From assembly GCA_043823435.1 (NCBI GenBank), contig JBDRAV010000016.1, positions 1,122 to 65,121 of the forward strand: a DNA stretch of 64,000 bases. Direction: 5' to 3'. The DNA is from Candidatus Omnitrophota bacterium (GTDB lineage Bacteria > Omnitrophota > Gorgyraeia > Gygaellales > Profunditerraquicolaceae). Made by a program: the position numbers and the translations under genes. The notes under the pieces are model-generated. The model was not told the origin of the DNA and made no database searches. It was given only the letters and a program-made list of their open reading frames with translations. This document shows positions 1,740 through 63,340 of this stretch, in pieces; position 1 is the stretch's first letter, and each line of letters begins with the position of its first letter.

Positions 1740-1904
1740 AGGGACGTCTTTAAATGTAATCGGAAAGCGTTTATGCTATTATTCGAAAGGGTGTCCCCTC
1801 GAGCGACATTTTTCATTCAACTGTCACCTTTTTCCTGTCTGCCCTGTCTGTCCTGACTGCTGTCAGGCAGGGGGAAGGCGGGGGTTGAATTCAATGGTGT
1901 CCCT
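1740..1904 (+). repeat. AGGGAC...GTCCCT-bounded composite element, copy R0 (165 nt)
   Basis: Begins AGGGACGTCTTTA (1740-1752). Contains AAAGGGTGTCCCC (1786-1798), CCTGTCTG tandem words (1834-1850) and the hairpin CCTGAC-tgct-GTCAGG (1852-1867). Ends GGTGTCCCT (1896-1904). Module order matches the copies at 12213 and 34936. Confidence 0.7.
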
Positions 1905-3769: not shown

Positions 3770-3773
3770 GATA

Positions 3774-3853
3774 GCACCAGGTGCAAAGCCAATCGGGCAC
3801 CAGGTGCGAGATTAGGTTTGCAGACGGTACAAGATAGGATTGGCACCCGGTGC
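3774..3853. repeat. Phased array of the 11-bp palindrome GCACC-W-GGTGC (four sites, 23-nt period)
   Basis: GCACCAGGTGC at 3774 and 3797, a degenerate GCAGACGGTAC at 3820, and GCACCCGGTGC at 3843. Spacers contain CCAATCGG / GATTAGG / GGATTGG. Confidence 0.8.
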
Positions 3854-3865
3854 TAGGATAAAATT

Positions 3866-10885: not shown

Positions 10886-12214
10886 ATGGGGTTTTCTGGT
10901 CTGGATATCTATAAACTTTTACCTAAGACTAACTGCCGTGAGTGCGGTTTTGTAACCTGCCTGGCTTTTGCCATGCAATTAGCTAAAAAAGCGGTAAGTA
11001 TCGATAAATGCCCTTACCTAAGCGCTGAAGCCAAGAGCGCGCTTGAAGCTTCTGCGCAGCCACCCATAAAATTAGTTACCTTAGGCGAAGGGGATAACCG
11101 GTTAGAGATGGGTAATGAGACCGTTCTCTTCCGCCACGAAGAAAAATTCTATCATCCGGCCGGGCTGGGTTTTATCATTGAAGATAGCTTATCGCCCGAT
11201 GAGATAAAAAAGCGGCTGGAGAGGATTGGCCAGTTGAAATTTGAGCGCGTAGGCCAGGAGCTGAATGTCAACGCTGTAGCCGTTAAACAGACCGCAGATA
11301 AGAAAAAATTTATTGAGGTGGTCCAGGCAGTTATAAACAATACGCATCTGGCATTGATATTGATGAGCGATGAACCGCAGGCATTAAAAGAAGCATTAAA
11401 TATATCTGCTGCAAAGAAGCCTTTGATTTACCGCTCCACGAAAGATAATGCTGCGGAGTTCATCAAATTAGCGCAGGAGTTCAAGGTACCGCTTGTTGCT
11501 TCAGCCGCGGACTTAGAAACCCTTTCTAACCTAACCAAAGAATTAAACGGCCAGGGAGTAAGTGATTTAGTTTTGGATACAGGTGCGAAGCCGGTCAAAG
11601 ATAAGATTTGGGATTTGACTCAGATTAGGAGGCAGGCGCTTAAGAAATCTAACCGCGGCCTCGGGTATCCTGTTTTGGCAATAATAGATTCCAAGGACCC
11701 TTACGAGGAAGCGATGGAGGCCGCGACCTATATTTCGAAATATGCCAGCATTGTTTTAATGTCGGGCATTGAATCATGGCAGGTGTTGACACTTTTGACT
11801 CTTAGGCAGAATATATATACGGACCCGCAGAAACCTTTACAGATAGAACCGAAGCTTTATCCTGTGGGGGCCGTAACCAAGAATTCGCCTGTATTGGTGA
11901 CCACTAATTTTTCACTGACTTATTATACCGTATTAGGAGAAGTGGAGGCGAGCAAGATTCCCGCTTACATTGTAAGCGTGGATACCGAGGGTATGTCTGT
12001 ATTAACTGGCTGGGCAGCTGAGAAATTTACCCCTGAGAAAATATCAGATTCATTGAATAAGTTTGGGCTTAAAGAAGCGGTTTCGCATACCCGGATGATT
12101 ATCCCGGGGTATGTAGCGGTAATCAGCGGAGATCTGGAGGATAAATCCGGATGGCAGGTAATGGTAGGCCCGAAAGAAGCAGCAGGCATCCCTTCGTTCT
12201 TAAAGAACTTATAG
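10886..12214 (+). CDS. acsC: Corrinoid iron-sulfur protein large subunit (acetyl-CoA decarbonylase/synthase gamma, AcsC/CdhE)
   Basis: 442 aa. N-terminal 4Fe-4S cysteine motif TNCRECGFVTCLAFAMQLAKKAVSIDKCPYL. Size and context (RACo, cooC, acsD, acsE downstream). Confidence 0.9.
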   Translation: MGFSGLDIYKLLPKTNCRECGFVTCLAFAMQLAKKAVSIDKCPYLSAEAKSALEASAQPPIKLVTLGEGDNRLEMGNETVLFRHEEKFYHPAGLGFIIEDSLSPDEIKKRLERIGQLKFERVGQELNVNAVAVKQTADKKKFIEVVQAVINNTHLALILMSDEPQALKEALNISAAKKPLIYRSTKDNAAEFIKLAQEFKVPLVASAADLETLSNLTKELNGQGVSDLVLDTGAKPVKDKIWDLTQIRRQALKKSNRGLGYPVLAIIDSKDPYEEAMEAATYISKYASIVLMSGIESWQVLTLLTLRQNIYTDPQKPLQIEPKLYPVGAVTKNSPVLVTTNFSLTYYTVLGEVEASKIPAYIVSVDTEGMSVLTGWAAEKFTPEKISDSLNKFGLKEAVSHTRMIIPGYVAVISGDLEDKSGWQVMVGPKEAAGIPSFLKNL

Positions 12215-12394
12215 GGGCGTCTTTATTATTAAAACAGAGATGATTCTAATCCAAAGCAGGGACGACTTTGTTGCCAAAGAAAAGGGTGTCCCTTTTAAGA
12301 TTTTATTTTTAGGGGACACCTTTCGGATTGACAGAAGAAACGGCTTTCCTTTTAGATTCAAAGGCGTCCCCCGATTGAATTTAAAGACGTCCCT
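12213..12394 (+). repeat. AGGGAC...GTCCCT-bounded composite element, copy R1 (182 nt)
   Basis: AGGGGCGTCTTTA (12213-12225, overlapping the acsC TAG stop), GGGACGACTTT (12259-12269), AAAGGGTGTCCC (12281-12292), GGGGACACCTTT (12312-12323), AAAGGCGTCCCC (12360-12371), TAAAGACGTCCCT (12382-12394). The boxes can pair as three nested helices. Confidence 0.8.
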
Positions 12395-12410
12395 AAAATA
12401 AGCAAGAGAG

Positions 12411-14336
12411 ATGGAAAAATTAAAAGTTACATTTTATCCGGATAATAAAACCATAGAAGTAGATAAGGGTAAGACTATCCTTTCTGCGGCCATTTCCGCG
12501 GGGGTTTATGTTAATTCCGGTTGTGGCGGTGATGGCGTATGCGGAAGATGCAAGGTTATTTTAAAGAATGGCCAGGTTGTCACCCATCCCAGCGGTAGGA
12601 TAAGTCTCCAAGAGAGAAAACGGGGGATTTATCTGGCTTGCCTGACGACTATACAAAGCGATTTAGAAGTAGTAATTCCTCCCGAGTCGCGGCTCGACTT
12701 AGAAAAATTAAGCCCGGAGGAAATGGACATCAGGCTAAAAGGCCTCTATACGGAATCGGAAGACGTAGAATCAGCGGTATCTATTTTGGGCGAAGAAATT
12801 TTTACGCACTCGCCTTTAGCAACAAAGCTCTATTTGGAATTACCGCCTCCGGACTTAGAAGATAAAATCAGCGATTTGGAAAGGCTCTACCGGCAGATAC
12901 GGCGCATCCAGGATATCCCGATTATGCAGACAGGATTGAGTAATGTCAGGCGTTTAGGCGAAGTTCTGCGCTCTGCGGATTGGAAGGTCACCGTAACCTT
13001 GGGCAAGAGAAACGGGACAGCCGAAATTGTGCTTATTGAATCAGGAGATACTTCCAAAAAGAACTTTGGCCTGTGTTTTGATATAGGCACCACAACCATA
13101 TCCGGGCAGTTAGTAGACTTAAACAATAAAAAGGTCATCGGCACAAAAGCCACCTACAATAAGCAGGCTACATTCGGAAGCGACATTATCACCCGCATTA
13201 TTTATGCGCAGGAACCGGATGGCCTGGAGAAGCTGCATCATGCCGTAATTGACGGGATGAACCAGATGATTCAGGAATTAATCCGCGAAAACAATATAGA
13301 TTTAAATGACGTCAACTGTGTCTTGTGCGCAGGCAACACTACTATGGTGCACCTTTTATTGCGTGTTGACCCTACCTATATCAGGAGAGAACCCTATGTG
13401 CCTACGGCTAATTTTGTTCCGACTATCCGCGCTGCGGAGGCGGGGATAAAGATAAATCCCCGCGGCCTTTTATCCTGTATTCCAGGGATCTCCAGTTATG
13501 TAGGCGGGGATGTTACAGCGGGAGTTTTATCCTGCGGCTTGGACAGTATAGAGGATTTAAGTATCCTGATTGACATCGGCACCAACGGCGAAATAGTCTT
13601 GGGTAGCCGGGATTTTCTCATTTCGGCTTCTGCGTCTGCCGGGCCTGCCTTTGAAGGTTCGGGCGTAAGTTGTGGCATGCGTTCCAGCCGCGGCGCAATC
13701 CAGAAAGTCAAGATTACGCCCGAAGATTTTAAGGTTACTTATAGTACTATCGGCGAAGCCAAGCCGCGCGGCATATGCGGTTCAGGTTACATTGATATTA
13801 TTGCCCAGATGCTTAAGGCAAACTTATTGGATAAGAACGGCAAGATAAAATCGCTTAAGCATGAACGTATCCGCGAAGGAGAAGGCGGAAAGGAATTTGT
13901 AGTTGTGTTTAAGGACGAATCCGAGGCAAGTTTGGATATTGTTATCACTGAAGCAGACATTGAGAATATCAAGCGGGCAAAGGCCGCGATTTATTCTGCT
14001 GCCGCCGCTTTAGTCAAGCATATGGATTTGGATTTCTCTAAGATAAAAAAGATTTTTGTCGCCGGAGGATTTGGTACGTCTATTAATATAGATAGCGCCG
14101 TAGTCATAGGATTATTGCCGGATCTAGAAAGATCTAGATTTATTTTTGTAGGTAATAGTTCTCTGGCTGGAGCGCGCCAGGCACTTTTGTCTTACGATGC
14201 CATTAAGAAGACAGACGAAATCGCCAAAAAGATAACTTATTTTGAATTATCCGTAGAGCCAGGATATATGGACGAATATATGGCAGCGTTATTCTTTCCT
14301 CATACGGATTTGTCGAAATTTCCGAGCGTAAAATAA
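12411..14336 (+). CDS. Corrinoid activation/regeneration protein (RACo/AcsV type: 2Fe-2S ferredoxin domain plus ASKHA ATPase)
   Basis: 641 aa. N-terminal plant-type ferredoxin motif CGGDGVCGRCKV. ASKHA-like DIGTTT / DIGTNGE motifs. Occupies the position of orf7/RACo in acs clusters. Confidence 0.88.
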   Translation: MEKLKVTFYPDNKTIEVDKGKTILSAAISAGVYVNSGCGGDGVCGRCKVILKNGQVVTHPSGRISLQERKRGIYLACLTTIQSDLEVVIPPESRLDLEKLSPEEMDIRLKGLYTESEDVESAVSILGEEIFTHSPLATKLYLELPPPDLEDKISDLERLYRQIRRIQDIPIMQTGLSNVRRLGEVLRSADWKVTVTLGKRNGTAEIVLIESGDTSKKNFGLCFDIGTTTISGQLVDLNNKKVIGTKATYNKQATFGSDIITRIIYAQEPDGLEKLHHAVIDGMNQMIQELIRENNIDLNDVNCVLCAGNTTMVHLLLRVDPTYIRREPYVPTANFVPTIRAAEAGIKINPRGLLSCIPGISSYVGGDVTAGVLSCGLDSIEDLSILIDIGTNGEIVLGSRDFLISASASAGPAFEGSGVSCGMRSSRGAIQKVKITPEDFKVTYSTIGEAKPRGICGSGYIDIIAQMLKANLLDKNGKIKSLKHERIREGEGGKEFVVVFKDESEASLDIVITEADIENIKRAKAAIYSAAAALVKHMDLDFSKIKKIFVAGGFGTSINIDSAVVIGLLPDLERSRFIFVGNSSLAGARQALLSYDAIKKTDEIAKKITYFELSVEPGYMDEYMAALFFPHTDLSKFPSVK

Positions 14337-16048: not shown

Positions 16049-16120
16049 CGTAGAGCGTTTAGTTCTACTATACGCTAACCGCTACCCCTGCCTGCCGGCA
16101 GGCAGCGCTAAACGCTAAAG
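16046..16120. repeat. acsD-acsE spacer built from heptamer words plus an 18-nt perfect palindrome
   Basis: TAGCGTA GAGCGTT TAGTTCT (16046-16066), the perfect palindrome CTGCCTGCCGGCAGGCAG (16088-16105), and CGCTAAA CGCTAAA (16106-16119). The 14-mer ATAGCGTAGAGCGT and the word CGCTAAACGCTAAA recur at 32998-33061. Confidence 0.8.
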
Positions 16121-16136
16121 ACTGGAGCTTAAGGAT

Positions 16137-34935: not shown

Positions 34936-35098
34936 AGGGACGTCTTTATTACCAAAGCAAAGGGTGTCCCAGATTCAAAGCAAAGGCTGTCCCCTCTTAA
35001 TATGGGCACCCTTATGATTGACGCAAGAAACCACTTCCCCTGCCGGCAGGCAGTGATTGGGTCAGAGGACGTCCCCTGATTGATTTAAAGGCGTCCCT
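34936..35098 (+). repeat. AGGGAC...GTCCCT-bounded composite element, copy R2 (163 nt)
   Basis: AGGGACGTCTTTA (34936-34948), AAAGGGTGTCCC (34959-34970), AAAGGCTGTCCCC (34982-34994), GGGCACCCTT (35004-35013), CCCCTGCCGGCAGGCAG (35037-35053), GGACGTCCCC (35067-35076), AAAGGCGTCCCT (35087-35098). Colinear with R1. Confidence 0.8.
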
Positions 35099-36700: not shown

Positions 36701-37913
36701 GGCGTTAATAGTTCAGAAATTCGGCGGTACCTCCGTAGCTAATGTGGAACGGATACGCAAGGTTGCCCGTCGCGTAGTAAGTTGTCGTAAAAAAGGCTAT
36801 GACCTGGTAGTGGTGGTTTCCGCTTTGGGGGATACTACTGACGAGTTAATTGATTTAGCAAGTAAGATTACCTTTGATCCGTCAGAGCGAGAAATGGATA
36901 TGCTCCTGTCGACCGGAGAGCAGATTTCCGTAGCGCTTCTGGCTATGGCGATACATAAATTAGGATTTGAAGCTATATCCTTTACTGGAGCGCAAGTCGG
37001 GATTATTACCGATACCAGTCATACCCGTGCTCGGATTATAAAAATCAATGCCGAAAAAATAAAAGAAGAGTTAAGACGCGGCAAGATCGTCATTGTGGCG
37101 GGCTTTCAGGGAGTAGCCCTGAATCAGGATATCACTACATTGGGCAGGGGTGGTTCGGATTTGACCGCTGTCGCCCTGGCAAAGGAGCTCTCGGCGCGCG
37201 AATGCGAGATTTATACCGATGTGGAAGGGATATATACTGCTGATCCACGCATAGAGCCGAAGGCCAGGAAAATTAAAGCCATTACCTATGACGAGATGCT
37301 GGAGATGGCTTCATTGGGTGCCCAGGTGATGCAGGCGCGCTCTATTGAAGTGGCAAAAAAGTTCAATGTAGATATACATGTGCGCTCCAGTTTCAATGAC
37401 GAGGTCGGAACAATGATTACCAAGGAGGTCAAGAGAATGGAAGACGTGGTTGTAAACGGCGTAACCCTGAACAAAAATGAGGCCAAGATTACGGTTTGTA
37501 ATGTCCCTGACCGCCCGGGTATAGCGGCAAAGATATTCAAGCAGTTAGCCGATAAAGGGGTAAGCGTAGATATGATAGTCCAGAATGTTAGCCATACCCG
37601 CCAGACGGATATATCTTTTACCATAAACAAAGCAGATGTGTACAAGACTCTGAAGATTGCTAAGAAAGTGGCTATGGGTATAGGGGCAGGGCAAGTATTG
37701 CAGGATAATGATGTTGCGCGGGTTTCTATAGTCGGTGTAGGAATGAAGTCTCATCCGGGTGTCGCAGCTACCATGTTCGATTCTTTAGCGGATAATAAGA
37801 TCAACATCGAAATGATTTCTACCTCGGAAATCAGCATTTCGTGTATTATAAAAAAGAGGTTTGCCGAGAAAGCGGTCAAGGCGTTGCACGACAAATTCGG
37901 CTTATCTAAATAA
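36693..37913 (+). CDS. lysC: Aspartate kinase (with ACT domains)
   Basis: About 406 aa from ATG 36693 (GGAGAAG at 36681-36687; overlaps the cstA stop by 8 nt). VQKFGGTSV, VVVSALGDTTDEL, GRGGSDLTA motifs. Confidence 0.94.
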   Translation: MHKALIVQKFGGTSVANVERIRKVARRVVSCRKKGYDLVVVVSALGDTTDELIDLASKITFDPSEREMDMLLSTGEQISVALLAMAIHKLGFEAISFTGAQVGIITDTSHTRARIIKINAEKIKEELRRGKIVIVAGFQGVALNQDITTLGRGGSDLTAVALAKELSARECEIYTDVEGIYTADPRIEPKARKIKAITYDEMLEMASLGAQVMQARSIEVAKKFNVDIHVRSSFNDEVGTMITKEVKRMEDVVVNGVTLNKNEAKITVCNVPDRPGIAAKIFKQLADKGVSVDMIVQNVSHTRQTDISFTINKADVYKTLKIAKKVAMGIGAGQVLQDNDVARVSIVGVGMKSHPGVAATMFDSLADNKINIEMISTSEISISCIIKKRFAEKAVKALHDKFGLSK

Positions 37914-37971
37914 GGGACACTTCTTGACCCAATCAAGGGACACTTCTCCGGCCAATCGGAGAAGTGTCCCC
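37913..37971 (+). repeat. AGGGACACTTCT-type element (59 nt) with a perfect 13-bp hairpin
   Basis: GGGACACTTCT at 37914 and again at 37937 (23 nt apart). GGGACACTTCTCC (37937-37949), loop GGCCAATC, GGAGAAGTGTCCC (37958-37970). The first A is the last base of the lysC TAA stop. Confidence 0.85.
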
Positions 37972-43161: not shown

Positions 43162-45147
43162 GTGGAAAAATTCAAGTTAGTCTCTGATTATAAGCCTTGC
43201 GGCGACCAGCCCAGGGCGATAAAAGAGCTATCTGGCTCGATTGGGTCGGGTAATAAGCACCAGACTCTGCTCGGCGTGACCGGATCCGGGAAGACCTTTA
43301 CTCTGGCCAATGTTATCGCCAGGATAAACCACCCTACACTGGTTATCTCCCATAATAAAACCCTGGCCGCGCAACTCTATTCGGAATTCAGGGAATTCTT
43401 CCCGCATAACGCCGTAGAATATTTTGTCAGTTATTACGATTATTATCAGCCCGAGGCATATATACCTTCAACAGATATATACATAGAAAAGGACGCTTCT
43501 ATTAACGACAGGCTGGACCGCCTGCGTCTTTCTGCGACCACTTCGCTTATGTCACGCCGCGATTGTCTTATTGTGGCTTCTGTGTCTTGCATATATAATC
43601 TTGGTTCACCGGACGAATACCGCGATTTACTTGTTCTTGTTGAAAAAGGGGAGTCTGTGTCGCGCGATAACTTGATATCAGGACTTGTTAAAATACAATA
43701 TGAGAGGAACGATTACGAGTTTATCCGCGGGAGGATAAGGGTCAGGGGCGATGTCGTAGAAATATTTCCTTCGTATGAAGAGGTCGCGCTGCGTCTAGAG
43801 CTTTTCGGAGATAAGGTAGAGAAGATATCGCAGATAAACCCTGTTTCGGGAGAAGTCCTGAATTCCCTGGATAGGATAGCGATATATCCGGCCAAACATT
43901 TTATATTCTCAGGAGAGGGGCTTGGCAGAGCGCTTAAGTCTATCGGGCAGGAGTTAGAAGAGAGGCTGAATATCTTAAGGGGTAAGAATAAATTATTGGA
44001 GGCCGAGCGCCTTGAATCCCGCACTAAATATGATATGGAGATGCTTAAAGAGATAGGCTATTGCCATGGTATCGAGAATTATTCGCGGCACCTTTCAGGC
44101 AGACCTCAAGGCTCAAGGCCGTATTGCCTCATTGATTATTTCCCGGATGATTTTCTCGTGGTAGTCGACGAGTCTCACGTAACCTTGCCTCAAATAAGGG
44201 GCATGTATGAAGGTGACCGCGCCAGGAAAGAGGTGTTAGTAGAATACGGATTCAGACTCCCCTCATGCCTCGATAACCGGCCTTTGAAGTTTGAAGAATT
44301 CAGGGACATAGTAAAACAGCAGGTATTCGTTTCCGCAACGCCCGATGAATACGAGATAAAAAATAGCCAGGGTCTTGTCATTGAGCAGATTATCCGGCCT
44401 ACCGGCCTGGTTGACCCTAAAATTATAATCAAGCCATCCGATGGCCAGATCGAAGACTTGATTAAAGAAGTAAAGAAGCGTGCCCGACGAAATGAGCGCG
44501 TCCTTATCACGACTTTAACTAAAAAATTGGCCGAAGACTTAAGTGTCTATTTACAGGAGAAGGGATTAAAGGTAAAATATTTACACTCCGAGGTAGAGAC
44601 TATTGAACGTTCAAGGATTCTCAGAGAATTAAGGCGTAAAGAATTTGATTGCTTAGTGGGAATAAATCTGTTAAGGGAGGGCCTGGACCTGCCCGAAGTT
44701 TCCCTTGTCGCAATATTGGACGCAGATAAGGAAGGTTTCTTGAGATCCGCTACTTCGCTGATACAGGTATCCGGGCGTGTAGCGCGCAATATAAACGGGA
44801 CCGTGATCATGTATGCCGATACCGTAACTGGCTCAATGAAGAAGGCAATCGCCGAAAGCGAAAGGAGAAGGGATAGGCAGTTCGATTTTAACAGGAAAAA
44901 TAAGATTACGCCGCGGTCTATTAAGAAGAGCATAAAACATGGGATAGAGGATTTAGAAGGAGCGCAGGAATTTGTGGCAGATTTAACCGGCCAGGATAAA
45001 GATGAATATGAATTAAGCAGGTATATTTCGGAACTAGAATACGAGATGGAACTTGCAGCGAGGAACCTGCAGTTTGAGAAAGCAGCGGTAATCCGCGATA
45101 AGATAAGAGACCTAAAACCGATCAACAGTAACAGGGACACTTCTTGA
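43162..45147 (+). CDS. uvrB: Excinuclease ABC subunit B
   Basis: 661 aa. [13 protein letters not shown]-terminal UVR domain ([11 protein letters not shown]). GTG start. The last four codons and the TGA stop lie inside the repeat at 45133. Confidence 0.97.
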
Positions 45148-45249
45148 CCCAAAGTAAGAAGTGTCCCCTAGAAGGTAATCTTAAGTAAATGGGGACATTT
45201 CTCCGATTAGCATGAGAAGTGTCCCTCGATTGGGACGAGAAGTGTCCCT
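45133..45249 (+). repeat. AGGGACACTTCT-type element (117 nt) with three hairpin units
   Basis: GGGACACTTCT (45134-45144) / AGAAGTGTCCC (45157-45167). GGGACATTTCTC (45192-45203) / GAGAAGTGTCCC (45214-45225), with one G-U pair on the plus-strand transcript. GGGAC (45232-45236) / GAGAAGTGTCCCT (45237-45249). The first 20 nt are identical to 37913-37932. Confidence 0.85.
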
Positions 45250-48206: not shown

Positions 48207-48213
48207 ATGGGGG

Positions 48214-48270
48214 GGGACAGGTGCCCGATTGGATTTGCACCTGGTGCCAGATTAGCTTTGCACCAGGTGC
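48214..48270. repeat. Phased array of three GCACC-W-GGTGC-type palindromes (23-nt period), inverted relative to the 3774 array
   Basis: GGGACAGGTGC (48214, a hybrid GGGAC/GGTGC box), GCACCTGGTGC (48237), GCACCAGGTGC (48260). Spacers contain CCGATTGG and CAGATTAG. Confidence 0.8.
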
Positions 48271-48311: not shown

Positions 48312-48465
48312 TTTAGACAACCTTTCTTAAATGTTCCTCGCAAAATAGATAAATATTCTTAACATATTGATAAATAATAACTTATATAGGATGCTGGTGC
48401 GATGAATAAGGAGCACCGTTTAGCACGCCTGCCGAGATGTGGGGTAGGCCGGTAAAGGAGATGAC

Positions 48466-49626
48466 ATGGGAGAATGGATAGGTATAAACAGGCGTTCCCG
48501 TAGGTGTTATGGTTTTGATGAGGTCGCGCTTGTCCCGGGAGCGCAAACCATTAACCCTAATGAAGTTGATGTATCTTTTGTGATGGCAGGCAGAAAGTTC
48601 AAGGTTCCTATATTGGCTGCCGCCATGGACGGAGTAGTAGATGTTGGTTTCGCGGTCCAGATGTCCAAACTGGGAGGTATCGCCGTATTAAACCTTGACG
48701 GAGTTCAGACCCGCTACGATAACCCGAATACAGTACTAGAAAAGATCGCTAATGCGACCTCGGAGAAGGCCACCGAGCTAACTCAGTCTATATATACTAC
48801 TCCTATAAAGGAAAAGCTGATTTCTAAGAGAGTCTCTGAGATAAAGCGCAAGAAAGGTACAGCAGTAGTAAGCTGTATCCCTGTCCATGCCGAAAGGTTC
48901 TCCAAGATCGCGATCGCGGCGGGTGCCGATATGTTCGTGGTGCAATCTACAGTGACTACCACAAGACATATCACTAAAGAATATAAGAGCCTGGATTTAT
49001 TTAAATTTTGTAAATCAACTAAGATACCGGTAATTATCGGTAACTGTGTGACTTATGAGACTACGCTTGCGCTTATGGAGACGGGCGTGGCAGCGCTATT
49101 AATCGGTATCGGACCCGGGGCAGCATGTACTACCAGGGGAGTGCTCGGTATCGGTGTGCCGCAGGTGACCTCTACCGTGGATGCCGCTGCAGCAAGGGAT
49201 TTTTATTATAAGAGCAAAGGCAGGTATATCTCTATAATCACTGACGGCGGTATGAACCGCGGAGGAGATATCTGTAAGGCATTTGCCGCAGGAGCCGATG
49301 CTGTGATGATCGGTTCCAGCTTTGCCCGTGCCAAAGAAGCTCCGGGTAGGGGTTATCACTGGGGAATGGCGACTTCCCATGTAAATCTTCCCCGCGGCAC
49401 ACGTATATATGTCGGTACAACCGGAACGCTAAAAGAGATCCTTTTTGGGCCGGCAAAGGTTGATGACGGCTCGCAAAATCTTATTGGAGCGCTGAAGACT
49501 TCGATGGGGTCGCTTGGCGCTCTTGATTTAAGGCATATGCATGATGTAGAAATTATAATTGCGCCCTCAATACAGACCGAAGGAAAGATATTTCAGGTAG
49601 GGCAGAGAGTAGGGATGGGGAAATGA
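48466..49626 (+). CDS. IMP dehydrogenase family protein lacking the CBS pair (GuaB3-like, IMPDH-related family)
   Basis: 386 aa. YGFDEVALVPG N-terminus, catalytic loop GIGPGAACTTRGVLGIGVPQ. No CBS subdomain insertion. Confidence 0.85.
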   Translation: MGEWIGINRRSRRCYGFDEVALVPGAQTINPNEVDVSFVMAGRKFKVPILAAAMDGVVDVGFAVQMSKLGGIAVLNLDGVQTRYDNPNTVLEKIANATSEKATELTQSIYTTPIKEKLISKRVSEIKRKKGTAVVSCIPVHAERFSKIAIAAGADMFVVQSTVTTTRHITKEYKSLDLFKFCKSTKIPVIIGNCVTYETTLALMETGVAALLIGIGPGAACTTRGVLGIGVPQVTSTVDAAAARDFYYKSKGRYISIITDGGMNRGGDICKAFAAGADAVMIGSSFARAKEAPGRGYHWGMATSHVNLPRGTRIYVGTTGTLKEILFGPAKVDDGSQNLIGALKTSMGSLGALDLRHMHDVEIIIAPSIQTEGKIFQVGQRVGMGK

Positions 49627-51167: not shown

Positions 51168-51171
51168 TTTG

Positions 51172-51262
51172 GTTCGCAAGTTCGTAAGTTCTTCAGTTCG
51201 TAAGTAATTAAAGAATTGTTATGAACCAATGAACTTTAGAACTAAAGAGCAATAGAGCTTTT
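51172..51262. repeat. Two opposed octamer arrays filling the guaA-dnaE spacer
   Basis: GTTCGCAA GTTCGTAA GTTCTTCA GTTCGTAA (51172-51203), then GAACCAAT GAACTTTA GAACTAAA GAGCAATA GAGCTTTT (51223-51262). GTTC and GAAC are reverse complements. Confidence 0.75.
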
Positions 51263-51263
51263 A

Positions 51264-62344: not shown

Positions 62345-63271
62345 ATGAAAATCGTTATCGTCGGTCCCGGAGCAATGGGAAGTTTATTCGCCGCCTTTTT
62401 GTCAAAATCCAAAGAAGAGATATGGCTTCTAGATAAGAATAAGGAGCGCGCAAGCCGCATACAGCAAAACGGGATATCCGTGGAGGGCGTTTCAGGCAAT
62501 TGGCAGGCCGCAGTAAAGGCAACTGCCGATGCCAAAGAGATAGGGGAGGCGAATCTGGTAATAATCTGCGTTAAGTCTTATGATACTAAAGAAGCGATGC
62601 TACACGTCAAACCTATCGTAGGAGAAAACACCAGGGTTCTTACGTTGCAAAACGGTATCGGCAATATAGAAATACTGAATGAAATAGCAGGCAGCGATAA
62701 AGTAATCGGAGGAGCGACTAACCTTGGCGCGACGCTATTGGATGCGGGCAAGGTAAGGCATGCCGGGCGCGGGGAGACGGTTATCGGCCGCATCGATGGG
62801 AAGATCCCCGTTGAAATGCGCTCTATCCGCGAGTTATTCAATAAAATCCGCCTTGAGACCAGGATATCGCGCGATATTAAAGGCTTATTATGGTCAAAGC
62901 TGATCATCAATGTAGGGATAAACGCGCTTACTGCTATCACGCGCTTAAATAACGGAAGGTTAGTGGAATTTGAGGGGACACGCAGGATATTGCGTAATGC
63001 AGTCACGGAAGCAATCCGTGTAGCCAAGAGAAAGAGGGTTAAGCTTATCTACGATGACCCGCTGGCTAAAGTAGAGGCAGTCTGTGAGGCAACTGCAACC
63101 AATGTATCCAGCATGCTGCAGGATGTATTGAAGAAGAAGCGCACCGAGATAGATTTTATTAATGGGGTGATCGTGAGGCAGGGGCAGGAGCTCGGTATCC
63201 CCGTGCCTGCGAATTCATTGATCGTTGACTTAGTCAAAACCATCGAAGCTAGTTATAAATTAATGGTCTAG
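62345..63271 (+). CDS. panE: 2-dehydropantoate 2-reductase
   Basis: 308 aa. MKIVIVGPGAMGSLFA Rossmann motif, VKSYD, SMLQD..K..TEID motifs of the ApbA/PanE family. Confidence 0.9.
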   Translation: MKIVIVGPGAMGSLFAAFLSKSKEEIWLLDKNKERASRIQQNGISVEGVSGNWQAAVKATADAKEIGEANLVIICVKSYDTKEAMLHVKPIVGENTRVLTLQNGIGNIEILNEIAGSDKVIGGATNLGATLLDAGKVRHAGRGETVIGRIDGKIPVEMRSIRELFNKIRLETRISRDIKGLLWSKLIINVGINALTAITRLNNGRLVEFEGTRRILRNAVTEAIRVAKRKRVKLIYDDPLAKVEAVCEATATNVSSMLQDVLKKKRTEIDFINGVIVRQGQELGIPVPANSLIVDLVKTIEASYKLMV

Positions 63272-63340
63272 GGACTGTCCCCGAGATATTGCTCTTAGCG
63301 GGTTGTTCTTAGGGGATTGTTCCTAAACAGTTCTTTATTT

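Follow-up and report, generated by a model that had tools for sequence, protein, structure and literature searches.

Hairpin-forming intergenic repeats, probably of the REP/REPIN/BIME kind, in an Omnitrophota genome

Repetitive extragenic palindromic (REP) sequences and REPINs occur in tens to hundreds of copies per genome, the RAYT gene that accompanies them being normally single-copy, and the BIMEs of Escherichia coli are mosaics of REPs in alternating orientation with conserved inter-REP motifs between them. Described REPIN/RAYT systems include the REP/PU elements of E. coli and the REPINs of Pseudomonas fluorescens (PMC3116915, PMC3337134). GTAG- and CGTC-tagged REP superfamilies, together with the terminal inverted repeat (TIR) sequences of TIRtrons, were described by Di Nocera et al. 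2013 (PMC3733652): these REPs supply TAG stop codons through their termini, assemble into head-to-head dimers as well as clusters, have G-T pairs in their stems, include sub-families in which alternative complementary stems are used, and are inserted in uvrB and other repair genes; the TIRs flanking TIRYT genes share the motif GGGGWSAS. Here, a repeat family is described in a 64,000-nt stretch of an Omnitrophota genome (contig JBDRAV010000016.1; hereafter the window), Omnitrophota being part of the PVC group. The focal sequence, at positions 12213–12394, is probably one copy of a non-autonomous, hairpin-forming mobile repeat family of the REP/REPIN/BIME kind. The initial annotation, made from the letters of the window, had called it one of at least five 'MITE/REP-like' composite intergenic elements (MITE, miniature inverted-repeat transposable element), which is right in the broad sense that non-coding DNA bounded by AGGGAC...GTCCCT is present in multiple copies.

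Modules, nested tiers and pairing

All genes of the window lie on the + strand, and Pfam confirms CdhD/AcsD, RACo, ApgM, CstA, LysC, CimA, ValS, NadC, UvrB and CoaX around the elements. GGGAC/GTCCC boxes with conserved bodies of 11–12 nt are grouped at 1740–1904, 12213–12394, 34936–35098, 37913–37971 and 45133–45249, and a sixth, minimal site is present at 63270–63286. The clustering at the five larger sites, noted at the outset, is real: GGGACRYC occurs 14 times in the window against 4.5 expected, a count reached by none of 100 shuffled sequences, and 11 of the 14 occurrences fall in three intergenic spacers. Similarly, AGGGAC followed 30–200 nt downstream by GTCCCT is found four times, against 0.38 expected and a maximum of three in 300 Markov simulations. 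In the following list and throughout, bit scores refer to a covariance model built only from type A units (defined below) of other species, and L-numbers denote loci from other genomes, with positions within the locus after a colon.

12213–12394 (182 nt), + strand: focal three-tier composite between cdhD/acsD and the RACo gene.
12213–12225, 12258–12270 and 12281–12292: boxes in the left part of the focal element, AGGGGCGTCTTTA, AGGGACGACTTTG and AAAGGGTGTCCC.
12312–12323, 12359–12370 and 12382–12394: boxes in the right part of the focal element, GGGGACACCTTT, CAAAGGCGTCCC and TAAAGACGTCCCT.
34936–35098 (163 nt), + strand: composite element between apgM and cstA (38 bits).
45133–45249, + strand: type B element between uvrB and coaX.
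37913–37971, − strand: type B element between lysC and cimA (19.5 bits on the − strand).
1740–1798 (59 nt), − strand: half unit, a REP-like singlet (24.4 bits on the − strand).
63270–63286, no strand assigned: mini-palindromic box AGGGACTGTCCCCGAG, of the type present in the L099 and L104 elements.

The basic module is ~23 nt long and consists of an 11-nt linker (CGATTGGNTTT or its partner CCAAAGC) and a 12-nt G+C-rich box ending in GTCCC(T). The type A box, GGGAC[GA][TC]C[TC]TT, is found at 1740–1904, 12213–12394 and 34936–35098; a stem variant, the type B box GGGACACTTCT, is found at 37913–37971 and 45133–45249. Modules occur singly, in tandem (for example, ...GTCCCT directly followed by CGATTGGATTTAAGAACGTCCCT) or inverted, and their 23-nt period is exact in the window. 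Two inverted modules form a 36-nt hairpin, AGGGACGTCTTT-(12-nt loop)-AAGGGTGTCCCC; two such hairpins, inverted with respect to each other, form a two-tier hairpin of 73–94 nt; and further nested tiers generate composites of 158–182 nt, such as the focal element. The unit consensus reads AGGGACGTCTTT-N-CCAAAGC-N-AAGGGTGTCCCC-loop-GGGGACACCCTTCCGATTGGNTTTAAAGACGTCCCT. In the two-tier hairpin, a short CCAA/TTGG helix and a conserved 4 × 4 internal loop lie between the outer and inner stems, which measure ~12 bp each; the 36-nt half units fold on one strand only, via three G-T pairs. Two-tier units of 73–94 nt are present in L001, L003, L005, L016, L018, L033 and L099, and at 45133 in the window. 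The family thus has the short imperfect palindromic unit of 20–40 nt, repeated in intergenic DNA, that marks REPs and REPINs, and its boxes, separated by linkers CGATTGGNTTT, CCAAAGC or GATTCAAAGC in alternating or tandem orientation, form a mosaic of the BIME type. All strong covariance-model matches lie in intergenic DNA or at the 3′ ends of genes.

The focal element starts with AGGGGCGTC, not with AGGGACGTC as first annotated; its first bases overlap a TAG stop codon, and it ends 16 nt upstream of the RACo ATG. Its linkers are CCAAAGC or CCAAAG at the left and GGATTGAC or CCGATTGAATT at the right, and the apical loop spans 12293–12311. The RNA fold of the element has an energy of −58.2 kcal/mol, with a z score against shuffled sequences of −3.8 (compared with −2.7 for 34936 and −3.9 for 1740–1904), and the covariance model matches it at 12258–12347 (41.8 bits). 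Element 34936–35098 has the same outer arms (AGGGACGTCTTTA and TTTAAAGGCGTCCCT) and, in its left half, two 23-nt modules in tandem; a 14-nt mini-hairpin, CTGCCGGCAGGCAG, is nested in it at 35040–35053. Element 45133–45249 is composed of a two-tier unit (45133–45226) and one 23-nt module, CGATTGGGACGAGAAGTGTCCCT (45227–45249), with the uvrB stop codon (45145–45147) inside its first box, and 37913–37971 of one module (37913–37935) followed by the perfect 14-bp hairpin GGGACACTTCTCCG-GCCAAT-CGGAGAAGTGTCCC. The half unit at 1740–1798 lies in the divergent promoter region upstream of gatC and runs in the order AGGGACGTCTTT, loop with TAATCGG, AAAGGGTGTCCCC; it is followed by an unrelated hairpin and then a solitary box, GGTGTCCCT, at 1896–1904. 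The gene at 62345–63271 ends in a TAG stop codon within which the minimal box at 63270–63286 begins.

These details alter the initial annotation in several respects. The colinearity claimed for three long copies holds for 12213 and 34936, and also with 158-nt elements elsewhere, but not for 1740–1904, which is an assembly of half unit, unrelated hairpin and solitary box rather than a long copy, and whose ends lack the 12–13-nt inverted repeat. Nor do all copies have the same orientation, the model hits at 12258, 34936 and 45133 being on the + strand but those at 1740 and 37913 on the − strand. The observation that each copy ends 12–20 nt upstream of the next start codon stands, as does the proposal of nested pairing with compensatory stem changes. 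The best window match of the type A model is a type B unit, 45133–45226 (60.7 bits, E 1e-13), which keeps the linkers CCCAAAG and CCGATTAG and differs in both arms of both stems; further stem variants with pairing kept and linkers fixed are found in L033, L099 and L016. In the model-fitted alignment, where every element is represented by both strands, paired cells make up 91.4%, and the covariation score is 0.287, compared with 0.171 in shuffles (0 of 500 reaching 0.287) and at most 0.134 when partners are slid. These data support the view that pairing is maintained while stem sequence changes and linkers remain constant.

Copies in other species and turnover at gene junctions

A scan of one genome per species with a 22-nt pattern of the right arm gave 18 loci, ~15 of them in at least six Omnitrophota/PVC-group metagenome-assembled genomes (MAGs) of different species, and three evident chance matches elsewhere; a metagenome scan with NadC gave ~14 strongly syntenic relatives (NadC 61–76% identical). 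The closest relative found is L099 (RACo 93% identical), compared with 84% for L101 and 85% for L104. Three-tier elements of 158 nt at L012 (the uvrB–coaX junction of JAGUUJ01), L101:13158–13315 (a different junction of that MAG) and L004 (another species, JAUYDQ01) are colinear, module by module, with the reverse complement of 12213–12394, a match that also covers the unpaired apical loop. Two species carry 158-nt copies that are near-identical, loop and all, at different loci, and unrelated loci of several Omnitrophota species hold the same elements in either orientation to transcription. Comparison of these copies demonstrates that the elements are copied as whole units to new intergenic sites. 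Local density reaches six sites in 64 kb (window), three in 21 kb (L101, where three type A elements lie within 4 kb) and two in 14 kb (L099). In the other syntenic relatives, type A/B boxes are almost absent (~1 site in ~300 kb), so that the family appears patchy among lineages; viral contigs gave no match to a pattern of inner box plus linker.

Gene junctions in relatives provide a straightforward view of gain and loss. Of 14 syntenic relatives, 7 have a 17-nt overlap of uvrB and coaX; the gap between lysC and cimA measures 2–20 nt in 10 of 13, and apgM directly adjoins the next gene in several; given such short or overlapping junctions, the 116-nt and 78-nt spacers of the window are inserts. 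The uvrB–coaX junction carries three variants in three lineages, namely type B in the window, three-tier type A in L012 and a third variant in L033, and uvrB reads into the element in all three. Within 13 kb, four junctions of L099 depart from those of the window: acsD–RACo, the focal junction, is occupied by a different, compact element lying in inverted orientation; RACo–cooC, 3 nt long in the window, holds a near-identical second copy; gatA–gatB, where an array takes up 96 nt in the window, is 6 nt long; and an unrelated hairpin is present downstream of tsaD. In L104, the focal junction reads GTAGGGACTGTCCCC-AAA-GGGGACTGTCCCTAC. Insertion polymorphism between relatives, expected of elements such as those initially annotated, is therefore seen at uvrB–coaX, lysC–cimA, acsD–RACo, RACo–cooC and gatA–gatB, and these comparisons show fast turnover of the elements at operon junctions, including insertion, loss and exchange.

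The elements usually lie directly after or over a stop codon and before the next ribosome-binding site, within operons. Their end point 12–20 nt before the next start codon follows from the state of these junctions, which were ancestrally 2–20 nt long or overlapping, so that only the ribosome-binding site remains downstream of an insert that follows the stop codon. Some repeats are translated: several RACo homologues include repeat-encoded sequence, as C-terminal tails (for example, KEGRL from an AGGGCGTCTTT box) or as N-terminal extensions containing PDW, which are translations of CCCGATTGG.

A separate observation concerns the RACo gene of L101 (L101:10680–10770, JAGUUJ01), which contains a 48-nt in-frame insert encoding TSTALSADGERSRTIG, also found in proteins P0016, P0023, P0026 and P0046. 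The insert forms a 14-bp hairpin, has a 9-nt direct repeat on its two sides (ACTATCGGC and ACCATCGGC), is absent from RACo of the window, and looks like an intragenic palindromic insertion with target duplication.

Proposed mobilization and competing explanations

The family shares with REP and REPIN sequences a short imperfect palindromic unit, inverted dimers with a spacer that give a long hairpin, the occurrence of singlets, an intergenic, multi-copy and non-coding character, sequence conservation across related species, and G-T pairs in stems. Like BIMEs, the elements are modular mosaics with a small set of conserved linkers and a variable number of modules, located between genes of one operon. 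As in the REPs of Di Nocera et al., termini provide the TAG stop of the upstream open reading frame, head-to-head dimers and clusters are formed, alternative complementary stems exist, and copies run into uvrB and other genes; in addition, GGGGACAC, the inner box, agrees with GGGGWSAS, the motif of TIRYT-flanking TIRs, although with an 8-nt degenerate motif this is a lead only. On the basis of the close parallels with these published families (PMC3733652), a single-copy HUH (Y1) tyrosine transposase of the RAYT or TIRYT type, which would be encoded elsewhere in the genome, probably mobilizes the elements in trans in the form of single-stranded DNA hairpins.

Several points weigh against this interpretation. 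The outer terminus is NTAG-GGAC, with TAG at ~11 of 15 right ends, and the conserved unpaired GTAG tag of REPs and REPINs, or a CGTC tag, is not found; most copies have a base other than G at the first tag position, and GTAG occurs in a minority only (window 1896–1904 read on the − strand, L018, L101, L104 and L032). Since CGTC lies within the stem instead of forming an unpaired tag, membership of the CGTC-tagged REPs was rejected. A phmmer search with E. coli RayT of the window's open reading frames and ~1.2 Mb of related loci gave no match at E ≤ 10, in a test of low sensitivity, and the Pfam lists of L099 and L101–L105 contain no Y1_Tnp domain; a RAYT gene was thus not found in the window or these loci. 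The covariation figures derive from a model-fitted alignment of both strands, and inverted duplication could yield complementary arms without selection for pairing. Further differences from REP/REPIN systems are the long, 12-nt loop of the unit with its conserved CCAATCG or CCAAAGC, the three nested tiers that the elements reach, and the host phylum itself. Stems of 10–12 bp with 12-nt loops fall outside most of the families in PMC3733652, and sequence, box repertoire and the strict 23-nt period set the elements apart from BIMEs. Among other modular repeats, BOX elements of Streptococcus pneumoniae (boxA-boxB(n)-boxC) also have a variable number of internal modules, and RPEs of Rickettsia are also tolerated when read into or within protein-coding sequence, as in the uvrB and RACo tails; however, their sequences are unrelated, and the Omnitrophota inserts are mostly at gene ends and not in frame inside genes.

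An alternative is that the elements are host cis-acting RNA hairpins that punctuate operons, through mRNA stabilization, processing or partial termination, and have spread by being useful. Their position within operons, after the stop codon and before the ribosome-binding site (acsD–RACo, pstS–pstC in L008, dapA–dapB in L007, mdh–icd in L002), their stable RNA folds, the three different variants at uvrB–coaX and a T-rich spacer that often follows the left half-hairpin would all suit such a role. It is nevertheless unlikely as the primary explanation. Orientation to transcription is not fixed: judged by the right arm, eight elements are sense, four antisense and four in convergent or divergent spacers, and the three-tier elements are split two against two. 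Across 21 elements, sense and antisense fold energies show no consistent difference; mixed orientation and the lack of a strand preference argue against a strand-specific RNA element, and strand-specific RNA function was dropped on this ground. Most syntenic relatives have no spacer at all at these junctions, some copies lie in divergent promoter regions (1740, L014, L018), and a plain stabilizer hairpin would not require its unpaired loop and linker to be conserved across species, as they are here. In Rfam searches, only tRNAs reach gathering scores in the window, and the best hit in 12150–12450 at a permissive threshold has E 0.16, far below gathering scores. The elements are not followed by a T run, a consensus terminator scan of them gave no excess of sites, with only a weak 7-bp site inside the focal element, and a promoter scan of the elements gave no signal; an Rfam family, a canonical terminator or a promoter therefore does not fit. 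A secondary contribution is plausible by analogy: co-transcribed elements would form stable RNA hairpins in either orientation, and could thereby incidentally buffer upstream mRNA inside operons. E. coli REPs buffer upstream mRNA against 3′ exonucleases in this way.

The most unusual feature of the family is that its 11-nt linker and 23-nt period are common to a second box family, which includes a hybrid box and is represented at two sites in the window:

3770–3865, no strand assigned: four 23-nt modules with the self-palindromic box GCACCNGGTGC at 3774, 3797, 3820 and 3843.
48213–48270, no strand assigned: hybrid box GGGACAGGTGCC (48214), then CGATTGGATTT-GCACCTGGTGC and CAGATTAGCTTT-GCACCAGGTGC, with a 23-nt period.

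The first site lies between gatA and gatB, has linkers CCAATCGG, GATTAGGTTT and GGATTG, and matches the covariance model weakly (19.6 bits). In the second, the 11-nt linker CGATTGGATTT is identical to that in type A elements of other species. Linkers CCAATCGG, GATTAGGTTT and CGATTGGATTT are thus common to GCACCNGGTGC-box arrays and the GGGAC family, and box types (GGGAC...GTCCC, GCACCNGGTGC and the hybrid GGGACAGGTGCC) are interchangeable around a constant linker. This hints that the linker, and not the stem, is the recognized part. Under a corresponding alternative, the conserved entities would be the linker (CGATTGG/CCAATCG) and the 23-nt period, and the elements would be made or moved by something other than a RAYT (a linker-recognizing enzyme or hairpin-templated copying), or be bound by a dedicated loop-binding protein that punctuates the operons of small genomes. 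The lineage also fills operon junctions with many other box-repeat hairpins. An origin of this kind is unlikely. The CCAAT/ATTGG linker might conceivably be a cold-shock-protein (Y-box) site, an idea that was set aside. Separately, a run of eight G residues directly precedes the hybrid box (48207–48214) and could be slippage-prone.

Descent from an IS630/Tc1-type insertion sequence that inserts at TA and duplicates it, with the elements as MITEs comparable to Correia (NEMIS, Neisseria) and RUP (pneumococcus), had been suggested by the initial annotation and is very unlikely. The elements do resemble Correia and RUP in size range, terminal inverted repeats and co-transcription with neighbors: they have 13-nt terminal inverted repeats, are 60–180 nt long and lack coding capacity. 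TA follows GTCCC at the 3′ end of 11 of 16 elements, and a recent L099 pair has TA at three of four ends. However, TA is found at the 5′ end of only 7 of 16 (both counts take in the next base outward and were tallied by eye from printed flanks), and the inner A and T next to GGGAC/GTCCC are invariant and paired to each other, which makes them part of the palindrome and not a duplication. No convincing target-site duplication was found in the flanks or at filled-versus-empty junctions, and the RACo–cooC comparison in particular shows no clean TA duplication; at uvrB–coaX, the ribosome-binding-site region is seemingly part-duplicated on both sides of the insert, with copies that are not adjacent to the element. 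Moreover, in contrast to TIR-only MITEs, the elements are palindromic over their whole length and built of 23-nt modules. There is no IS630-like gene in the window or the Pfam-listed loci, and no insertion sequence with matching termini that could be the parent occurs in the window or among the loci fetched.

Finally, a dimeric DNA-binding or nucleoid protein might bind the elements as arrays of sites at the DNA level, with a 23-nt period that would phase the 11–12-nt palindromic boxes on one helix face. This explanation is the least probable, because distant boxes are complementary (1 with 4, 2 with 3) and change together, which an array does not need, apical loops vary from 1 to 40 nt and most type A boxes are not self-palindromic, even though box spacing is strictly 23 nt in all families, GCACCNGGTGC and GGGACNGTCCC boxes are self-palindromic, one 11-nt linker, CGATTGGATTT, occurs with two box types, and E. 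coli BIMEs are known to bind IHF and gyrase.

Other intergenic repeats and significance of the family

Several further repeats were observed in the same data. A hairpin family with boxes GCGTTTAGC and GCTAAACGC (or AGCGTA) is found between genes at 16049–16136 and 32989–33063; L101 has a three-tier GGGAC element at the junction that, by gene order only (CdhD-domain gene, Pterin_bind gene), apparently matches 16049–16136. The 14-mer CTGCCGGCAGGCAG forms the apex of the 16049–16136 hairpin (16088–16105) as well as lying inside 34936–35098, no such recurrence being expected by chance, with a looser relative at ~1838–1875; it looks like a mini-hairpin inserted into other elements. The spacer at 51168–51263 has GTTCGTAAGTTC-type boxes at the left and their complements (GAACTTTAGAAC) at the right, and similar low-G+C hairpins with repetitive arms, each with its own box, occupy junctions in relatives, namely L019 (apgM–cstA), L032 (lysC–cimA), L101:569–720, L104:13908–14050 and L104:21431–21531.

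Around tRNA genes (26830–27010 and 29520–29700), the hairpin motif TTTTCCCGACAAGGGAAAATT(T/C)AATGGCACT occurs twice and a unit resembling GGCGGTATCATTTTTTCGACA...AAAGACAGAAAAA two to three times. A conserved leader of ~50 nt, CCG(T/C)TTAGCACGCC..CCGAGATGTG.GG..GGCCGG.AAAGGAGAT, ends in a ribosome-binding site at 48410–48465 and L101:2151–2214 and precedes different genes, the gene at 48466 in the window and an S41 peptidase gene in L101. Another intergenic family in relatives (L104:6091–6229, L104:12756–12928, L099:5959–6164 and L104:2257–2420) has AACTTATGT...CATAAGTT modules and ends in CTGCTCATTAAGGAGG just upstream of start codons; two L104 copies are 93% identical over 71 nt.

The literature searched contains no description of such repeats in Omnitrophota. 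The GGGAC repeats thus constitute a real and apparently undescribed Omnitrophota family, probably of the REP/REPIN/BIME kind, without opening a new category. REP/REPIN-type repeats have been studied almost entirely in Proteobacteria, and a family that crosses species in Omnitrophota, within the PVC group, widens their range. The family is a marker for strain typing and for assembly and binning problems in Omnitrophota MAGs, and its translated copies account for odd annotations at gene ends, namely C-terminal tails and N-terminal extensions. With 23-nt modules, two to three tiers, several stem variants and one linker, it also offers a compact test case that could show what a mobilizing enzyme recognizes.

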